Shown: one piece after another, positions 54,403 to 64,000 of the stretch
How positions within the stretch are numbered: position 1 is the first letter of the stretch
Layout: every line of letters starts with the position of its first letter
Source of the DNA: Terriglobia bacterium
GTDB lineage: Bacteria > Acidobacteriota > Terriglobia > 20CM-2-55-15
Direction of reading: 5' to 3'
DNA length: 64,000 bases
NCBI GenBank assembly: GCA_965218585.1
Contig: CBDCLE010000002.1
Coordinates: 489,586-553,585, forward strand
The notes under the pieces: model-generated
What the model was told of the DNA's origin: nothing
What the model saw: the letters and a program-made list of their open reading frames with translations, nothing else
Database searches by the model: none
Translations under genes and position numbers: made by a program

Positions 54403-55915
54403 TTTGAGCAACTGTGGATGCTGTCGGACAGGTCGTTGCCTTAGTGTACTCCAGACCGATCCGGAGGAACTACAGAACGAGAGTGTGGCAGCCAAGCCCG
54501 CGATTCCCACACCGACTCTCCCTCTAGCGACCTCCACGAATTGCTCCCTCAGGCACCGAAAGATCCAGCCCCATCTGTTGGGCTACGATCAGCTGCATCA
54601 TTTGAGCGAAATCAGTAGATGCCAGATCCGTGTCGCCCGCGCCGCTCCCACCCATGACTAGTGTCGGAACCTGCCGAGTGGCGTAGGCATTGGCCCAAAT
54701 CTGCTGTGCCTGTACATAGGCCAGCAGTTTTTCCTGCAATGCCCCATCGGCCTGAAGTACCAGTCGCTTTCTTTCGGCCTCGCCCTGACCGAGGAGGATC
54801 TCTTCCTGCTTCTTTTCGGCCGCGGCCAGGCGATCAAGTTGAGCAACTTCGACCCGCTGCTGTGCCTCAACTACGGCACGAGATCTTTCAAACTCGGCGA
54901 CATCCAGCCGTTCCTGTGCTTGGACAACTGCTCGGATCTTCACTTGCTCCTCTGCGTACCGCTCGCGTGCCACGTTGGCCTTTCCTTCCGCCTCCACCAT
55001 CAGGGCTTCCTGTTCAGCCTGCTGGGCTCGGGCCATCGCGGTGGACACCGCCATGAGCGCGGTCTGCTGTGTGCCGATTTGTTCTCGCACTTTCTCTGTA
55101 TAGTCGAACTGCTTCACTTCGAAGTTCGCAAGAGTAATGCCTAGTCCATCCAGCGGATTCTGCTGATAGGCAGAATTTCCATCGTCCCCCATCTTGATTA
55201 TCTTGAAGGTCTTCGTGACCTCCTGCCCCGACACCGGATCGATGACCTTTCGCGTTTCTTCCTCGGTCTCATATAGCCCGTTCTGGATCTGGTCCCAGGC
55301 CCAGAAGACATAGTCCGCACGCTTCTCCGAATAGGACTCTCGTGCAGACATCAGGTTCGCAGTGACGCGAAGGGCGTTTCGGACAACGGGGAGGATGAGC
55401 TTCTGCTCGAGCTCCTGGTAGTCGGCGTAACCGTACTTGGTTACCACGTCGATGGCTTCTTGTTCTGCACTGGGGAGGATGATCCGCAAAGTGCCGGACA
55501 CGTCACAGAGGGACCCATCGTTGAATCGCACCTCGATGGCGGGAGCCGATCCAGTCTTCTCATTCATGAAGTAAAACGTCTCTGCTTTTGGCCAGGTCAC
55601 GATGTTGCTGAATAGCTGAGGCCACATCCCGGGCATGAGCTTGGCGTCCATCTTGCCCGTAACGATCATCTGCCTCACCTGGTAGGAGTTCTGATTAACA
55701 GTCTCAAGGATCCCGGCGCCGAGCACAGCCAATACTCCCAGGATCGATCCCACGACAGTGAGCTTTTTCACTGACAGGAATAACAAAGCCGTCGATTTGA
55801 TCTGGGATATGAGACGGATACCTCGCCAGGAAGCCCCAAGGCCCGCAAGAAGGGCATTCTTTGCCTTTTCTGAAGTGTCTTCATGTTTCGGGTTCGTTTT
55901 CGGTTCGTCCAGTAG

Positions 55916-57383
55916 TACTACTATGTTACAAACGGTCTATTTTATGTTAGCATCCGGTCATGAGCGCCAAATCGAAGGCGCCAGGCACTCAGGAAAAACG
56001 TTTTGCGGCCTATTTGGAACGCCTGGCGTCGGCCGCAGGACACGCCGATCGTCATGAACCGTTGAAGTCGTACTGCACCGGGTTGTTGCTGCCGATCAAA
56101 CGTAAGAGTGTGGAGCCGATGGCTGCACGATTGGCTCCGGATAATGTACGCCGAATGCACCAGTCGCTACATCATCTGGTCGCGGATGCGCCCTGGGACG
56201 ATGCGGCTCTGTTGGCAGAAGTTCGACAGTACGCGCTGGGGGCGATGGAAGCCAACGGTCCGATTGAAGCCTGGATTGTCGACGACACCGGATTCGTGAA
56301 AAAGGGGACCCACTCGGTGGGTGTGGCCCGGCAATACTGTGGACAGGTCGGCAAACCTGAGAACTGCCGGGTGGCGGTGAGCCTGTCGGTGGCGACAGCG
56401 AAATCCAGCTTGCCGGTGGCATGGCGACTCTACCTCCCCGAGACCTGGGCGAAGGATCCGGAACGTCGAAGCAAAGCCGCTATTCCCGAAGACGTTCGAT
56501 TTCAAACTAAACCTCAAATTGCTTTGGAACAAATCCGGCAGGCCGTCGATGACGGCATTGCTCCGGCACCGGTTCTGGGCGATACGGCCTACGGCAACAA
56601 CTACAAGTTCCGGCACGGCATCACCGAACTCGGACTTAGCTACGTCCTAGGGGTGCAAGGCACCACGACCGTGTGGAAACCGGGCCAGGGTCCCTTGCCG
56701 CCGAAATCCTTGACCGGCCGCGGACGGACACCGACCCGCATGCAGCGCAACAAGAAACATCAACCGGTTTCGGTCAAGCAACTGGCCCTCTCGTTGTCTC
56801 CCCAGCGTTGGAAGAACGTCTCCTGGCGCGAAGGCACCTCCGAGACCCTGCGTTCCCGTTTCGCCGCAGTTCGCATTCGTCCCGCTCATCTGGATCACGA
56901 GCGCCACTCGCCGCATCCGAAAGAGTGGTTGTTGGTCGAGTGGCCCAAGACCGCATCCGAACCGATCCGGTACTGGCTCTCCACTCTTGGGGCCCATACC
57001 TCGCTTTCCGATCTGGCCGGTCAGGCCAAACAGCGCTGGATCATCGAACGCGACTATCAGGAACTCAAGCAGGAACTCGGTCTGGGACACTACGAAGGTC
57101 GCGGCTGGCGTGGATTTCACCATCATGGCACCTTATGTATTGCCTCTTATGGGTTCCTGGTCGCCGAGCGGAGCCGTTTTTCCCCCTCTGCATTTGTCGA
57201 GCATGTTGGACTATCCGTCCCCAAACTCCCCAAACACTTCAAACCCCGCGGAACCCCGGATCCGGCCCGAACGACATAACCCCTGCTCGATTGCCACGCT
57301 TCGCATTCGCATCGCCCGCTTCCTGATTCAGCAGCTTCCTCGTTGTCCGTTCTGTGGACCGCTTCGTTTGTAACACAGTAGTA
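55916..57383 (+). mobile_element. IS701-family element, copy 2 (1468 bp)
   Basis: TIRs as copy 1 (one mismatch); 4-bp TSD GTAG. Confidence 0.93.
55960..57279 (+). CDS. IS701 family transposase
   Basis: Two amino-acid differences from copy 1; retains RQYCG. Confidence 0.93.
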   Translation: MSAKSKAPGTQEKRFAAYLERLASAAGHADRHEPLKSYCTGLLLPIKRKSVEPMAARLAPDNVRRMHQSLHHLVADAPWDDAALLAEVRQYALGAMEANGPIEAWIVDDTGFVKKGTHSVGVARQYCGQVGKPENCRVAVSLSVATAKSSLPVAWRLYLPETWAKDPERRSKAAIPEDVRFQTKPQIALEQIRQAVDDGIAPAPVLGDTAYGNNYKFRHGITELGLSYVLGVQGTTTVWKPGQGPLPPKSLTGRGRTPTRMQRNKKHQPVSVKQLALSLSPQRWKNVSWREGTSETLRSRFAAVRIRPAHLDHERHSPHPKEWLLVEWPKTASEPIRYWLSTLGAHTSLSDLAGQAKQRWIIERDYQELKQELGLGHYEGRGWRGFHHHGTLCIASYGFLVAERSRFSPSAFVEHVGLSVPKLPKHFKPRGTPDPARTT

Positions 57384-57589
57384 GTAGACCCATGATCGAT
57401 TCCTCCTTCCTTCGACAGATTCATATATCTGCATTCAAGGCCTAAGACGACAAGCTGGAGAGAAGAGACCGCGGAAATCTTGCGCGCACCAGGTATTCAT
57501 GCCATTCTCACATCGAATCCCGTTATGGCGCGATTTCTGCAATTGGTTTATGGGAGTGTCGTGAGCCAAGACCTGCCTTGAAACGATTC

Positions 57590-57623
57590 TCAACGCCTGT
57601 TAAATTATCTTCGCGGACCTTGA
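57590..57623. repeat. 34-bp palindromic site A (degenerate)
   Basis: tcaacgcctgttaa-attatc-ttcgcggaccttga. Confidence 0.6.
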
Positions 57624-57737
57624 GAATTTCAGCGAACGGAAACCCTCCTCTCGCCTGCCGTTCCTCGATTGGCCTCCAACTGGCTGTATCTCCCATTGTT
57701 TCAATGGATTACTGAGAAACTCGAAGCTCGCCATTTC

Positions 57738-57771
57738 TCAACGTCCGACAATGTCGTTTGTCAGGACTTGA
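57738..57771. repeat. 34-bp palindromic site B (inverted relative to C and D)
   Basis: tcaacgtccgacaa-tgtcgt-ttgtcaggacttga. Confidence 0.8.
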
Positions 57772-57850
57772 GAATTTAATAGCGCCTAACTTCCTGCCTT
57801 AGTATTCTTTACCGAGTTTTTCGCAGCTTTTTCAGCGACACACTTTAATC

Positions 57851-60528
57851 ATGGAATCTGGCACCAAACTCGCTCATTACGAGATCTCAACGCTCTTGGG
57901 TAAGGGTGGAATGGGAGAGGTGTGGCGTGCCAAGGACACGAAACTTGGGCGTGAAGTTGCTATTAAGACACTGCCTGAAGAGTTTGCGAAGGATGCAGAT
58001 CGATTAGCCCGGTTCGAGCGTGAAGCGAAACTCCTTGCCTCATTGAATCACCCAAACATCGCGGCCATTCACGGATTTGAAGAAGACAACGGAACGCACT
58101 TTCTCGTTCTCGAATTGGTTGAAGGCGACACCCTCGCTGACCAGTTGAAGCATGGGGCTATTCCTGTCGAAGAATCACTGAAGCTTGCCGTTCAGATTGC
58201 GGAAGCCCTCGAAGCCGCGCATGAAAAAGGTGTCATCCACAGGGATCTCAAACCCGCCAACATCAAAGTCACCGACGACGGTAAGGTCAAAGTGTTGGAC
58301 TTCGGTCTGGCTAAAGCGTTTGAAGGCGACGCCCCTGACGCGAGCGTGTCGAACTCGCCAACCTTAAGTATGGCCGCGACGCAGCAGGGAACGATCCTTG
58401 GAACAGCTGCCTACATGTCGCCGGAACAGGCACGCGGGAAAACGGTGGACAAGAGAGCCGACGTTTGGGCATTCGGCGTGGTCCTCTATGAATCGCTCAC
58501 AGGGAAGCAAGCATTTGCCGACGACGACGTGTCGATGACGCTTTCACGAGTGCTTCAACGAGAACCGGACTTCGATGCGCTCCCCGCCAGCCTGTCACCG
58601 ACAGTCAATACGTACATCAGGCGCTGTATCGAGAAGGACCCAAAACAGCGTGTCCGAGACGTGGGGGACGTACGACTGGCGTTAGAAGGAGCATTCGACG
58701 CCGCTGGGTCAAAAGCTTCTGATGACGGGGAAATCCTGGCCATGGATCAGGCCGCCGGTTGGCGGTACGCGACGTCGCTTGCACTTGCATACCTCGCCGC
58801 AGGTAGCCTCATCACAGGTCTGTTAGTCTGGAACTTGTCCCGCCCTGACCCACAAGTTCCAATCCGTTTTACGATTAATACGGACCCCGTATACACATCG
58901 ACTGTCTATCAGGACATAGCGATTTCGCCTGATGGACAACGCATCGCTTATATGACCGGCGGCGATGAAGTCGGGTTGAACGTCCGCACGCTGGATCAGT
59001 TCGCGCCGGTGGTTCCACTTGGCGACGCCTCGTGCTGCCATGGCCCGTTCTTCTCACCTGATGGCCAGTGGGTTGGTTTTGTCGACTTACTTGGTGCCGA
59101 ACTCAGACGAATCCGTGTGGACGGCGGTCCGACTGTCACGATTTCTGATCTCGAAGGTCACGCTATGACAGGTGCCACCTGGGGAGACGATGACACTATC
59201 ATTTTCTCCACTGCGGAAGGCAGTGGTCTCTGGCAGGTCCCAGCAGCAGGGGGAGATCCTGAACCGTTAACGACGACGGATGCCGTGCAGGGGGAACTGA
59301 ACCATCTCTGGCCTGAAATCCTACCCGGGGGCGAAGCAGTTCTGTTTCCATCACGAGCCTGACCCAAGACCCACAGATCGCCGTTCTGTCTCTGGACACG
59401 GGCCAAACGAAGATCATCATGCCGGGTGGATCCAGTCCGAGGTATGCCGCCTCGGGCCATCTCGTGTATGCGGTCGAGAATAGTTTGAGGGCTGTAGGTT
59501 TCGATCTCGACCGACTGGAGGTCCGAGGCGACCCGTTTCCGATCCTGGAAGACGTTCTCACCAAAGCGTCCGGCGCAGCGAACTTTGCTATTTCTGACAA
59601 TGGATCTCTTGTATATATGCTGGCGAGTACTGCCGTGGAAGGGACAATGGGATGGGTCGATCGCAGCGGAGCAATGATCTCCGTGATCGACACGGGACCC
59701 TTCTGGGCAGGCCCTCGGCTTTCGCCCGATGGCACACGTGTGGCTGTGGCGATGAGTGGCGAAACCAGCAGCGAAGATATCTGGATCTACGATCTCGAAC
59801 GAGACGGGGGTGAACTCAGGCTGATATCAGAAGGCGCTGACCGCTGGCCGGTTTGGACGCCAGACGGCTCAGAGATCACGTTTACCTCCACAAAAGGCGG
59901 TGGCACGTTGGATCTGTACTCGATATCGGCAGATCTCGACGATGCCCCAGAACCGCTTCTCGAAAGTCCGGAGATCTTGGTTCCCGACTCGTGGTCTGAA
60001 GATGGTCAGGTCCTGGTCTACATTAGGCTCAACGCACAAACCGGATATGACATTTGGTCTCTGGCAGACGGTGAGTCGCAAGCAGTTGTCGTCGGTGAAT
60101 CCAACAACACGGCACCACGTCTGTCGCCAGATGGTCGGTCGTTGGCTTTTGCATCCGACCGGTTCGGGGAAGGCCGAATTTTTCTGCAGCGGTTCCCCGA
60201 CGGTGGAGGCGTAATCCCTGTCTCAACGGGAGCGGGCACTCAAGCCGTGTGGTCAAGGGACGGCCGCGAGCTTTTCTATCGCAATGGGAATCAAATGATG
60301 GTGGTCGGTGTGGAAACCGAGCCAGCACTTAGTTTCGGGCAGCCCCGCGTCTTGTTTGAAGCACCGTACGATATTTCACCGATTGGCGTGGCCAATCCCA
60401 ATTATGATGTATCGCTAGATGGACAACAGTTCCTGATGATTCAGACAACTGGCACTGGCCAAACAGCCGCAATGACCTTCGTCCTCAATTGGTTTGAAGA
60501 ACTGAAGGAACGTGTACCGGTTCCCTGA
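57851..60528 (+). pseudogene. Ser/Thr kinase-TM-TolB/PD40 beta-propeller protein 1, frameshifted near 59345-59349
   Basis: GKGGMG, HRDLKPAN, DFG, YMSPE; TM; SPDG repeats. Encoded by ORFs 57851..59362 and 59419..60528. Confidence 0.88.
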
Positions 60529-60537
60529 TTTTCAAGG

Positions 60538-60571
60538 TCAAGTCCGGATAAATCATCTTGTCGGACGTTGA
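60538..60571. repeat. 34-bp palindromic site C (plus an extra half-site at 60586-60596)
   Basis: tcaagtccggataa-atcatc-ttgtcggacgttga. Confidence 0.8.
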
Positions 60572-60675
60572 GAAATAGCAATAAATCGGACGTTGACCTT
60601 CTGATTGCGTCTAAACCCCTCATCTAGTATCTTTTACCGAGTTTCTCTCGGTTGGTTTAGCGACACACTTTAAAC

Positions 60676-63374
60676 ATGGAATCTGGCACCAAACTCGGCC
60701 ATTACGAGATCTCAACACTCTTGGGTAAGGGTGGAATGGGAGAGGTGTGGCGTGCCCGGGACACAAAACTCGGGCGCGAGGTGGCAATCAAGACACTGCC
60801 GGAAGAGTTTGCCAAAGACGCTGATCGGCTGGCACGGTTTGAACGTGAAGCGAAACTCCTGGCGTCGCTCAACCATCCGAACATCGCTGCGATCTACGGA
60901 CTCGAGGAACACGAAGGTACAAGATTCCTTGTGCTCGAACTGGTGGAAGGTCCCACCCTGGGGGACCGCACCAAGCAGGGCGCGGTTCCAGTTGAAGAGT
61001 CTCTGAAGCTCGCTCTGCAGATTTCCGAAGCGTTAGAAGCAGCCCATGGGAAAGGTGTCATTCACCGTGATCTGAAACCGGACAACATCAAAGTCACACC
61101 AGACGGGAAAGTGAAAGTTTTAGATTTCGGCCTGGCCAAAGGGTTCGAAGGAGATGTTGCTGACGCCAGCGTATCGATGTCACCCACGCTGAGCATGCAG
61201 GCGACACAGCAAGGAGTGATTCTCGGCACCGCATCTTACATGAGCCCGGAACAGGCAAGCGGTGAGACAACGGACAAGAGAGCGGACATCTGGTCGTTTG
61301 GTGTTGTTCTGTTCGAAATGTTGACCGGGCAGCAAGTGTTCACCGGGAAGAACGTGTCGCACATTCTCGCCGATGTCCTGCGTGCAGATCCGGAGTGGAA
61401 CCACCTGCCGCCAAATCTCCATCCAAGGCTGTGGATGCTACTGGAACGCTGCCTGGAGAAGGAGGCCAAAGACCGCTGTCACGATATTTCGGATGTGCGT
61501 GTCGACATCCAGAAGGTTCTCTCGGACCCCGATGGCGTTTGGGCGCAGTCGGCGATCGTGGTCGGATCGAACCGGAGTCTTGCGGCTTCGCTTCTCGTCG
61601 TCGCAGCGGTGGCCGTCCTGGCCGCAACGATCTCCGGTGTCGCAGTCTGGAATGCCCGTGCGCCGGCAGATGTCCGTCGGGCGGTACACATGACCATTAC
61701 CTTGCCCGAAAACGAGCAACTCGCCGGTGGCGGCCTTGAAGAAATGTCACCGGTGGCTGCGTCGGTGAATGGTGATATCGCCTATGTCGGCATGCGTGAC
61801 GAGGTCCAGCAACTGTTCCTGCGTCGTCTGGACAGCCGCGAAGCCACGCCGATTCGAGGAAGCGAGGGAGCCACGGGTCCTTTCTTCTCACCAGATGGTC
61901 AATCGATTGGTTTTTTTGCAGCATCCCGGCTCAAGACGGTGTCGATTGATGGTGGTGTACCGAGGGAACTTGCACGGTCGAGTGTCCATCGCGGCGGAAC
62001 CTGGGGAGACGATGGATATATTATCTATTCGATAGACGGTGGGGGTAACGGCCTCCTCCGAATCGCGGATTCAGGAGCGGGTGAGCCCGAGCCTGTGACA
62101 ATACCTGACCCCGAATCTGGAGAAGGATCGCATCGTTTTCCACAGATTTTGCCTGGCGGCGAAGCCATTATATACACGGTCGGGACGGGGGGCAGCTGGG
62201 ACGATGCGCTGATCGTTGCTCAACGGCTGGACTCGGGCGAACGGTTCGACCTCGTCACTGGCAGTGATGCCCGCTACGTGAGGACCGGCCACCTGGTATA
62301 TGTTCGGGCAGGAAGGCTGATGGCCGTGCCCTTCAACCTGGAACGGTTGGACGTCACCGGTGAACCTGTCCCACTGGTCGAAGGCATCATGCAGGCCACC
62401 GACATCACAGGCGCATCGTTTGTGGCCGTTTCGGGAACGGAAACCGGCGAACTGGTATTCGTTCCGGGTGCGTTTCAGGCAACGGATCGAAGGTTGATCT
62501 GGATCGACCCTGCGGGACCGACAGAGCCGCTGTCGATTCCTTCAGGGCCCTACAACCGGCTGAGCCTCTCGCCCGACGGCCTCCGGGTCGCTGTCGAGAT
62601 CGACCAGGGAGACGAACAACAGATCTGGATCCACGACGTGCAGCGGGCCAATGTTCTCACGCCCCTGCCATTGGAAGGGATCCACAATCAGGCACCGACA
62701 ATCACTCCAGACGGGGCCAGCGTGTCGTTTACAAGAGGACCCTTCTCCGCAGGAGGATCCCGTTCGCTGTTTTCGACTCTCATCGATGGCAGCGCCGAGC
62801 CACAACTCCTGCTGGCATCTGAAGACGGGCCCTTCTGGTCGACGTGGTCTACCGATGGACAGATCCTGGTCTTCTCCGTGCAAAAACCAGACAACCAATG
62901 GGACATCCAATACATGCGGCCGGGCAGCGAAGACACGCCACAGCCTTACCTGGCCTCCGACGGAAATCAAATGAAGCCGCTTCTCTCTCTTGATGATAGC
63001 GTGCTGGCCTTTTCTTCGGACGAGCTCGGACGGCAAGAGATATACGTCCGTTCCTTCCCAGACCTGGCGCAAGGGAGACAGTTGATTTCAGCGGGTGGAG
63101 TGACCGACCATGGATTTGCCTGGGCTCGTGAGGGTCGAAGACTCTTTTACCTGACAGGACATCGCATGATAGCTGTCGACATCGAAACCGAGCCGGAGTT
63201 GGCTATCGGGCGCGCGAGGTAGTGTTCGAGACACCCTTCCCGATATCCAAGGAGTTCGACGTCTCACCCGACGGCCGCTTCCTGGTGATCCAGATCGAAG
63301 AACAACATCCGCGCCAGATCGAAGTGAACCTCAACTGGTTTGAAGAACTGAAGGAACGGGTGCCTGTCCCCTGA
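60676..63374 (+). pseudogene. Ser/Thr kinase-TM-TolB/PD40 beta-propeller protein 2, frameshifted near 63208-63217
   Basis: Same architecture as protein 1. The C-terminus EVVFETPFPISKEFDVSPDGRF...LNWFEELKERVPVP lies in another frame, ending at TGA 63374. Confidence 0.88.
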
Positions 63375-63383
63375 TTTCCGAGG

Positions 63384-63417
63384 TCAAGTCCTGATAAATC
63401 ATCTTGTCGGACGTTGA
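63384..63417. repeat. 34-bp palindromic site D
   Basis: tcaagtcctgataa-atcatc-ttgtcggacgttga. Confidence 0.8.
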
Positions 63418-63536
63418 GAAGTTTCCAGCCGTGCGAGTTCCTCGAACGTCAGGTTCTCAATTTCATCCTTTGCGGCAAGGACAAGTGGTATCCGGTTGTC
63501 CCTATGTGAAATGAGTACAGACAGTGGGGAAGCATA

Positions 63537-64000
63537 GTGAATCGGCGATTGATCGTGATCGTGGGGCAGGAGGGAGCTGGAAAGACGACCATCATTCGAG
63601 CTCTATTGGAACGCACACCAAATGGTGCTCAGATCGATGCCGAGGATGTCGGCCAGGTTAATCCGTGGTCGATGGATGCAAAATTCCTTGATCTCTTGGG
63701 GCGAAACGTCAGCTCCTTGGCCAAGAACTTCTGGGACGCTGGATATGAGAATGTTCTTGCTGGGAGCTTTCTTAACAATCGTGTGGAGTTGGATCGCTTC
63801 CGAACTCTGATCGCGGTGGATGTCGAATGGGTAGTCGTGCAACTTTGCGCATCGAAAAGTGTCCGCGACGAAAGGCGCATCGCACGAGACAAGGCTTCAA
63901 GCCCTGAGTTGCGTGAGATGGTGGACGCGGCATGCCCCGAAGATGTAACGCTTGCGTCAGGTGAGCGTTGGTACCGCTATTTGCGGGTTGATGACGGAGA
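63537..64000 (+). CDS. P-loop nucleotide kinase-like protein (runs off the window end)
   Basis: GTG start; LIVIVGQEGAGKTT Walker A, IDAED; open to the end of the window. Confidence 0.75.
   Translation, partial: MNRRLIVIVGQEGAGKTTIIRALLERTPNGAQIDAEDVGQVNPWSMDAKFLDLLGRNVSSLAKNFWDAGYENVLAGSFLNNRVELDRFRTLIAVDVEWVVVQLCASKSVRDERRIARDKASSPELREMVDAACPEDVTLASGERWYRYLRVDDG

Follow-up and report, generated by a model that had tools for sequence, protein, structure and literature searches.

Introduction

In integrons and the related integrase-less attC clusters (CALINs), co-oriented series of mostly single accessory genes are each followed by a conserved imperfect palindrome, the attC site, which is about 57–141 bp long, folds into a stable bulged hairpin and sets the cassette boundary at an outer G|TT. 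A second precedent is offered by the dRS3 units, intergenic mosaics and minimal mobile elements of Neisseria, mosaic arrays in which short inverted-repeat units alternate with variable stretches that are for the most part short and non-coding; the units are considered to promote exchange of these stretches, by homologous recombination after transformation. Here we describe a family of 34-bp sites from a Terriglobia bacterium (assembly GCA_965218585.1). Four of them lie around two receptor kinase genes near the end of a 64,000-nucleotide stretch, positions 489586–553585 of contig C2 (CBDCLE010000002.1), which we call the window. An earlier account of these letters, made without database searches (the sequence-only reading), had taken the sites for recombination sites of the dif/lox kind that bound a system of movable kinase genes. 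Are they indeed points of gene exchange, and to which of the systems already described do they come closest?

Two further kinds of element have to be considered. On Acinetobacter plasmids, pdif modules are served by XerC and XerD (PMC6449649, PMC7399989, PMC12907356); pdif sites consist of unlike arms around 6 bp, bound accessory modules in many contexts, accompany modules that contain no recombinase, and are targets of insertion sequences (IS), all of which applies to the sites studied here. Repetitive extragenic palindromes (REP), with their compound forms, bacterial interspersed mosaic elements (BIME) and REPINs, are described in PMC3733652, which also mentions dRS3, as sequences of 20–40 bp in intergenic DNA at gene ends, with inverted doublets, species-specific copy numbers and frequent IS insertion. 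These traits, too, recur in our family.

Results

A large site family, almost confined to one genus

The window belongs to a 4.55-Mb assembly in 26 contigs, 95% complete (G000), which we compared with four congeners, G001 to G004, to give five genomes of the genus. A strict pattern, TCAA-N8-AA-N6-TT-N8-TTGA, matches the window four times, versus 0.00 matches expected from 100 shuffles. The four sites of 14-6-14 geometry that had been reported, A to D, are thereby confirmed in position, and so are their spacers (A, attatc; B, tgtcgt; C and D, atcatc).

The window shows only a small part of the family. Scanning the genome with a profile, as the sequence-only reading had proposed, uncovered at least 82 copies in G000: 45 G000 copies match the strict pattern, and the profile built from them (E<1e-4, non-overlapping hits) finds 82, together with many half-copies. 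By crude calls of open reading frames (ORFs), which cover ~88% of G000 and on which all our intergenic and polarity counts depend, 69 of the 82 copies are intergenic. They are also clustered, since 68 of the 82 have a neighbour less than 5 kb away, where random placement gave a mean of 13.2 and a maximum of 29 (1000 trials). Adjacent pairs are mostly co-oriented (36/49). Arrays are scattered over at least 10 loci in the chromosome, and 54 arrays with three or more sites were found in the sequence examined; contig C26, 378 kb long, has zero copies.

For comparison across genomes we used a 22-base site pattern with at most one mismatch. It occurs 47 times in G000 and 127, 88, 7 and 1 times in the four other species of the genus, 0–3 times per genome in 29 genomes from other genera of the same family, and not at all in 26 genomes from ten other families of the class. 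A scan of a genome collection with this pattern gave, among the matches listed, one locus, L015, and a scan of metagenome contigs gave two short contigs. L015 comes from another genus and holds a single site, arranged in the same order as in the window: coding tail, 9 nt, site. The site family is thus confined almost entirely to one genus.

Two classes of site with unlike arms

We analysed 239 full sites from three genomes, G000, G001 and G003; G001 was sampled over 451 kb and G003 over 398 kb, in array-rich regions chosen around listed sites. Two arms of 14 bp surround a 6-bp centre, an X arm of the form TCAA-CG-TCC-G-NN-AA and a Y arm of the form TCAA-G-TCC-TG-NN-AA. The arms are unlike, the TCC block being offset by one base between them. 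Oriented with the X arm TCAACGTCCGNNAA on the left, the sites fall into two classes. Class 1 has the centre GATGAT (172/239) and the right arm TTNNCAGGACTTGA or TTAACAGGCGTTGA. On the gene strand such a site has the order Y arm, ATCATC, X' arm and stands behind a gene. Of 43 neighbouring genes on the Y-arm side, 31 are directed at the site, and of 42 on the X side, 34 are directed away from it. Class 2, with the centre GATCGT, TGTCGT or GGTCGT (28/239) and often the arm TTGCGAGGACTTGA, has the opposite orientation to class 1 and precedes a conserved promoter-like leader module, the gene on its right-arm side pointing away in 13 of 19 sites. A complete junction is made up of a class-1 site, a linker of 17–23 nt, a class-2 site and the promoter-like module, and many junctions, such as the one after site C, keep only a half-site of class 2. 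About ten inverted doublets were found, with linkers of 17–23 nt or 114 nt. A small divergent ORF beside class-2 sites was considered as a gene and rejected, as all five copies contain early stops.

Does the conserved element act as duplex DNA or as a folded strand? Variation is found chiefly at positions X5, X6, X11, X12, R3 and R4, and less at R6 and R9–11; X11–12 and R3–4 are complementary in ~39% of cases, versus 36% expected (a hand count from the variation table). Folded as single-stranded DNA, C and D reach -3.5 to -5.7 kcal/mol (z -0.6 to -2.3), and only B forms a good hairpin, at -11.4. With these weak folds (DNA parameters) and no T run after either site, C and D do not have the makeup of intrinsic terminators, and Rfam gave no match at E up to 1 over window positions 57000–64000. 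Conservation of sequence, weak hairpins and the absence of compensatory pairing together make the 34-mers look like sites recognised by a protein on duplex DNA, rather than hairpins or terminators.

Two kinase cassettes in the window

All features of the window are given on the plus strand. Site A (57590..57623; profile E 9e-11) is a 3'-end-type site and a variant of class 1, with arm TCAACGCCTGTTAA, spacer ATTATC and arm TTCGCGGACCTTGA. It is joined by a 114-bp linker (57624..57737) to site B (57738..57771), an upstream-type site of class 2 with the X arm first and the spacer TGTCGT. Site A, linker and site B form an inverted doublet, and the linker with its adjoining flank is 85–88% identical to two G001 loci, L040 and L049, that carry the same inverted site pair. 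Between B and the first kinase lies the promoter-like leader module (57772..57850), with tagtat at 57800–57805, 45 bp after the centre of B, and the stretch ...ttaccgagttt.... This module recurs after many sites, in front of different genes, and we infer that it functions as a promoter.

The first cassette (57851..60528) encodes a Ser/Thr kinase with a PD40 beta-propeller (Pkinase E 4e-53, PD40 E 8e-21). It is followed by site C (60538..60571), a 3'-end-type site of class 1 that reads Y arm, ATCATC, X' arm, and by a junction module (60572..60675) in which the half-site cggacgttga (60587–60596) precedes a further promoter-like leader (tagtat at 60625–60630); the same combination of half-site and promoter-like module is seen behind many class-1 sites. 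The second cassette (60676..63374) holds another kinase/PD40 gene (Pkinase E 1.7e-49), whose tail, ...NWFEELKERVPVP*, ends at 63374, and site D (63384..63417), again of class 1, is the last of the array. The spacing described in the sequence-only reading holds: a TGA that closes an ...EELKERVPVP frame stands 9 bp before C and 9 bp before D, and 79 bp separate the end of B from the first kinase ATG. From C to D the distance is 2846 bp. The 16-mer TTGTCGGACGTTGAGA occurs exactly three times in the window, on the plus strand in C and D and on the minus strand in B, so that B is inverted relative to the other two, as had been noted. The sites do bracket the kinase genes; the genes themselves are not intact, each being broken by one frameshift, near 59340–59420 in kinase 1 (frames 57851–59362 and 59419–60528) and near 63215 (63200–63230) in kinase 2 (frame 60676–63222, then the tail to 63374). 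These frameshifts reflect either real decay or assembly indels.

Site-bounded modules in unrelated contexts

A 20-kb array on contig C4 shows no synteny in the four congeners; single modules match there at 90–95% identity, and other matches lie at 77–85%. To see what neighbouring sites delimit, we compared 187 site-to-site intervals from G000 and the G001 and G003 samples. In twelve pairs the shared part makes up at least 85% of the length; three of these lie within larger duplications and one shares one outer flank. Beyond both bounding sites of the remaining eight, which represent five independent modules at 90.5–99.8% identity, the DNA is unrelated. The five are a DUF6152 module (1247 bp, 99.8%) and a GNAT module (672 bp, 90.5%), each present in two G001 arrays, a 351-bp module (96.8%) in different G001 arrays, an M90 peptidase module (~1.2 kb, 91.9%) shared by G000 and G001, and a DUF3024 module (~0.45 kb, 92.6–94.8%) found in G000, G001 and G003. 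Of 42 site pairs with a common flank of at least 150 bp on one side, 38 are unrelated on the other, a count that includes pairs from paralogous promoter modules and from IS91-type insertion, so that the whole-module comparison is the cleaner of the two. Both comparisons identify the sites as places where homology stops. Judged from these alignments, site-bounded gene modules appear to have moved between arrays and between species, with exchange points inside the 34-mer.

The breaks can be placed more closely in two modules. Across the three genomes, homology of the DUF3024 module ends at the 6-bp centre of either bounding site. In the 99.8% identical DUF6152 module the left X' arm differs at two positions and the right Y arm at its NN, with identity outside the site. 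Logan contigs from three runs in two studies cover window positions 57300–63700 at ~3x depth; the 'joints' with extra letters seen among them come from paralogous repeat copies elsewhere.

Cargo and truncated coding tails

The 128 ORFs that adjoin sites are mostly singletons, and the recurrent ones encode IS transposases, kinase/PD40 proteins, DUF6152 proteins and amidohydrolases. Pfam families in the arrays include arylsulfotransferase, amidohydrolase, cupin, DUF3024, cytochrome c, DUF6282, outer-membrane barrel, cyclase, esterase, ankyrin, M90 peptidase, GNAT, metallo-beta-lactamase fold and glyoxalase. The cargo being so diverse and mostly accessory, kinases are only one kind of it, and the notion of a kinase-specific system is not supported, the flanking genes being mostly unrelated accessory ones (amidohydrolases, GNAT, glyoxalase, DUF3024, M90, barrel, esterase and ankyrin proteins). 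Searched for a recurrent gene, the array edges yielded IS transposases and DUF6152-family cargo and nothing else. Proteins with an N-terminal DUF6152 domain (~340–366 amino acids; for example G000:C2:93731-94747, L009:1159-2196 and L046:1863-2960) are the commonest cargo other than IS, with up to 44 paralogue hits for one member.

A coding stretch ending in ...EELKERVPVP* precedes 91 of the 172 class-1 sites in G000, G001 and G003 (for example L001:3657-3760). In 79 of the 91 tails the open frame is shorter than 100 codons, and 75 are brief remnants that follow unrelated genes and lack PD40-like coding sequence on their 5' side. Their 3' end is fixed and their 5' truncation points vary, leaving 6 to ~30 recognisable codons. 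Over the last 10 codons the entropy is 0.9–1.7 at position 3, versus 0.1–0.7 at positions 1 and 2, and this codon periodicity indicates that the tails diverged as coding sequence. We infer that many cassettes go back to a kinase-type gene whose body was replaced by another gene, its site-bearing 3' end being kept. None of the readings considered below fully explains these 5'-truncated tails with their codon-periodic conservation. In one case a DDE_Tnp_1_4 copy lies inside a tail remnant just 5' of a site and is flanked by CTAG at either end.

Insertion sequences at the sites

An IS30-family-like element of ~1.25 kb with a transposase of ~400 amino acids occurs at C3:347513-348799, C13:7086-8377 and C2:58367-59623, and the C3 and C13 copies sit exactly in the 6-bp centre of a 34-mer, with half-sites left on either side. 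In G001 a multi-copy element of ~1.55 kb abuts site centres. A tyrosine recombinase of 293–294 amino acids lies ~100–300 bp from a site in every copy examined in G001 and G003; its gene comes first in a two-gene IS91-family element, ahead of that for a Y2_Tnp/Zn_Tnp_IS91 transposase of 393–394 amino acids (L022:1370-3870, L023, L024, L026–L028 and L031–L033 in G001 and G003; L015:1245-6482). In six of six identical G001 copies the left end of the element is 25–35 bp from the 34-mer. G000 itself is very rich in IS: counted over >800 bp at >=90% identity, an IS256-like element occurs 65 times, a DDE_Tnp_1_4 element 34 times and a DDE_5 element 25 times, and the termini of these three abundant families bear no resemblance to the site.

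One of the DDE_5 copies (55913..57391; transposase ORF 55960–57279, Pfam DDE_5 E 4e-85) precedes site A in the window. Alignment of the window with G002–G004 reaches only as far as 55915–55916, so that synteny stops at the left end of this element. At the other end, the contig stops at window position 64000, shortly 3' of site D; the DNA after D is unrelated, and an ORF that runs off the contig (63537–63998) has weak matches, below the cut-off, to P-loop kinase/AAA and zeta-toxin-like Pfam families (E 1e-5 to 9e-4).

Discussion

What are these sites for? We tentatively favour the reading, which we hold at somewhat short of an even chance, that the 34-mers are duplex junction sites of a cassette-exchange system whose recombinase is encoded elsewhere. 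A protein, most plausibly a tyrosine recombinase, would bind the two unlike arms and exchange DNA there, and modules would be excised, inserted or replaced through such exchange. In this reading the arrays consist of genes that are each followed by a class-1 site, with an inverted class-2 site or its remnant before the promoter-like module of the next gene; in the window, B, C and D bracket two kinase modules, and recombination of C with D could in principle release kinase 2. The original proposal of dif/lox-like recombination sites stands as far as the asymmetric arms of duplex type, the conserved spacer and the module boundaries are concerned, and falls short in that the breaks do not fall at one fixed position.

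A number of observations count against this cassette-exchange reading, beginning with the enzyme. In G000, which is 95% complete, so that a gene could be missed, the best match to the integron integrase model TIGR02249 scores 83.7 bits, against a cut-off of 265, and the top scores belong to the two Xer-like genes. Phage_integrase hits in G000 number 12, none of them in or beside an array. Two of them are the Xer-like genes, the only tyrosine recombinases kept in all five genomes of the genus, and the others are scattered; contig C2 has a single hit, at C2:80299, outside the window, and with zero hits inside, the window encodes no recombinase, as had been stated from the sequence. Serine recombinases were rejected as the cognate enzyme because they do not track site copy number, and Y1 transposases or RAYT-like genes for the same reason; the two Y1_Tnp genes of G000 score below the NCBIfam RAYT cut-off. 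The IS91-associated tyrosine recombinase was rejected as well. The element is absent from G000, and its integrase family is common where sites are few, with 46 copies and one site in a genome of another genus, 21 copies and seven sites in a second genome, and 11 copies and no site in a third, a mismatch that marks the element as an IS targeting the sites, not as the source of their recombinase. Finally, a single dif-like candidate in G000 (C10:~37522, minus strand; ATGTCGCATAA-TGAGTA-TTATGTCAAGT, found with a short motif), which is a candidate site of chromosome dimer resolution, agrees with the 34-mer at ~6 of 11 bases per arm by eye, and is in other words unlike it.

The breakpoints add a second group of objections. 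Comparison across genomes, suggested in the sequence-only reading as a check, did place breaks inside the sites, not always in the spacer, however, and at positions that vary from case to case, which leaves room for short-homology recombination. Among clean one-sided pairs, the earliest difference that is informative lies at X5, X12, R3–4 or past the site; near-identical copies switch left of X5, between X5 and X12, between X12 and R3, or right of R4. No single fixed crossover point is thus demonstrated, and this is the main weakness of a site-specific reading. The variable positions of the site are scrambled even where the flanks are 99–100% identical, and the variable breakpoints may reflect repeated recombination at the sites, short-homology exchange or a conversion-type turnover of the variable positions. 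Conservation extends beyond the 34-mer on both sides, into the coding-tail remnant and the promoter-like module, so that longer homology is on offer for ordinary recombination. No pair of empty and occupied alleles was found in G000 and the array-rich 451 kb of G001 and 398 kb of G003, and orthologous empty sites may lie outside the sampled parts of the latter two. The mobility claimed for site-bounded modules is borne out by the five modules in unrelated contexts and not by the window's own kinases, neither of which has a high-identity second copy elsewhere.

Could the sites instead be dispersed extragenic palindromes of the REP/BIME kind, selfish or bound by a structural protein of the host, with the shuffling a by-product of RecA-dependent or short-homology recombination, gene conversion and IS activity, and without any dedicated recombinase? 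We consider this unlikely on balance, and it is the alternative that survives best. In its favour, the sites occur in large numbers, lie between genes, are specific to the lineage and differ widely in copy number from one congener to another, and the ten or so inverted doublets resemble BIME/REPIN pairs. Breakpoints that vary within the repeat, and variable positions scrambled between flanks of 99–100% identity, also speak for it, as do IS that target the sites (the IS30-like element in the spacer, the IS91-type element 25–35 bp from the 34-mer) and the lack of an enzyme in the searches for integrases, serine recombinases, Y1 and IS91-type proteins. Yet the identical blocks between variable positions measure ~10 bp, which is short for RecA-type exchange, the hairpins are poor and show no compensatory variation, and the copies lie not genome-wide but in polar arrays within non-syntenic regions, where they act as module boundaries; contig C26 lacks them altogether. 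No RAYT gene flanked by the sites was found: the one RAYT-like gene examined closely (L013:3408-4260, that is, G000:C10:115408-116260) is bracketed by a different inverted repeat, GGGGTCAGAGCCCTA, with 24 copies in the genome, which forms a second, unrelated family. According to PMC3733652, REP families without a dedicated transposase are on record; the terminal GTAG or CGTC tag by which the same paper defines a REP is absent from our sites.

Improbable, in our judgement, is a regulatory element native to the PD40/kinase family, in which an upstream operator and a 3'-end element are bound by one transcription factor and the modularity stems from duplication and decay. Class-2 sites do stand at a fixed distance before the promoter-like module, and class-1 sites 9 bp past ...ERVPVP* tails with codon-periodic conservation, an order that L015, the single site in another genus, repeats. 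But 75 of the 91 tails lie behind unrelated genes, whole non-kinase modules move bounded by sites, the syntenic kinase of G003 lacks a site, and congeners rich in kinase paralogues carry just 1–7 sites. For a transcription-factor operator in general the picture is mixed: class-2 sites keep their spacing to the promoter-like module, but class-1 sites stand at 3' ends, and homology breaks off at the sites. Least of all do we credit the sites as ends or surrogate termination signals of non-autonomous units, either cargo-carrying elements like miniature inverted-repeat transposable elements or rolling-circle units of IS91 type, whose one-ended or read-through transposition would leave a conserved 3' and a variable 5' end: for all the IS91-family elements that adjoin sites in G001, G003 and L015, the tail remnants with a fixed 3' end and variable 5' truncation, and the X arm that is outermost on both sides of kinase 1 as in an inverted repeat, G000 has 82 sites and zero IS91-type elements, the distribution of these elements is out of step with that of the sites, the three abundant IS families have termini unlike the site, target-site duplications are absent, and the two centres around kinase 1 differ (tgtcgt vs atcatc).

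How, then, does the preferred reading, a cassette-exchange system with duplex junction sites, relate to what has been described? With integrons the arrays share co-orientation, mostly single accessory genes and a conserved imperfect palindrome after each, as well as the presence of the same cassette in different arrays and species and a lack of synteny between relatives. Our sites differ from attC in length (34 bp, or ~44 bp with flanks), in their weak fold without structural covariation and in the absence of IntI; their boundaries are not consistently at an outer G|TT, the DUF3024 module breaking at the spacer, and many cassettes have their own conserved promoter-like module, in arrays spread over at least ten loci. 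The segments between dRS3 units differ in kind, ours being whole genes that carry conserved modules at the 5' and 3' ends. Compared with pdif sites, the arms are 14 rather than 11 bp long and unlike the dif-like candidate of G000 in sequence, direct repeats prevail over alternating ones, and the sites are chromosomal, number ~50 to >120 per genome and have two classes of centre. The sites are best filed as a member of the known kinds of junction-site and repeat systems, in a form that we did not find described in the searchable literature: searches for the site family, including three site words and the topics of REP, attC and cassettes in Acidobacteria, returned no description, with supplements and most subscription journals outside their scope.

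A further-reaching proposal, which we regard as possible but doubtful, is that these sites belong to an undescribed cassette system of Terriglobia that has no integrase of its own. Its 50 to >120 chromosomal lox/dif-like sites of 34 bp per genome, with two classes of centre, would bound cassettes that bring their own promoter-like module; a recombinase with its gene elsewhere, perhaps the housekeeping Xer pair, would excise and insert these cassettes and exchange them across species, and the tails would record the birth of cassettes by foreign genes overwriting kinase-type ones.

Acidobacteria are among the most abundant bacteria of soil, and the ways in which they acquire and rearrange accessory genes are poorly understood. 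If the 34-mers are true recombination sites, they would represent a second, integron-like route to cassette arrays, through simple duplex sites and with no dedicated integrase beside the array, and a site this short and well conserved could be searched for in metagenomes. The truncated tails bear on a question that integrons also pose, namely how a recombination site comes to be joined to a new gene. If the sites are instead REP-like, they would add a REP-type family of which we found no description for this phylum, and would provide a clear case of short repeats that organise the variable part of a genome and attract at least two families of insertion sequences.

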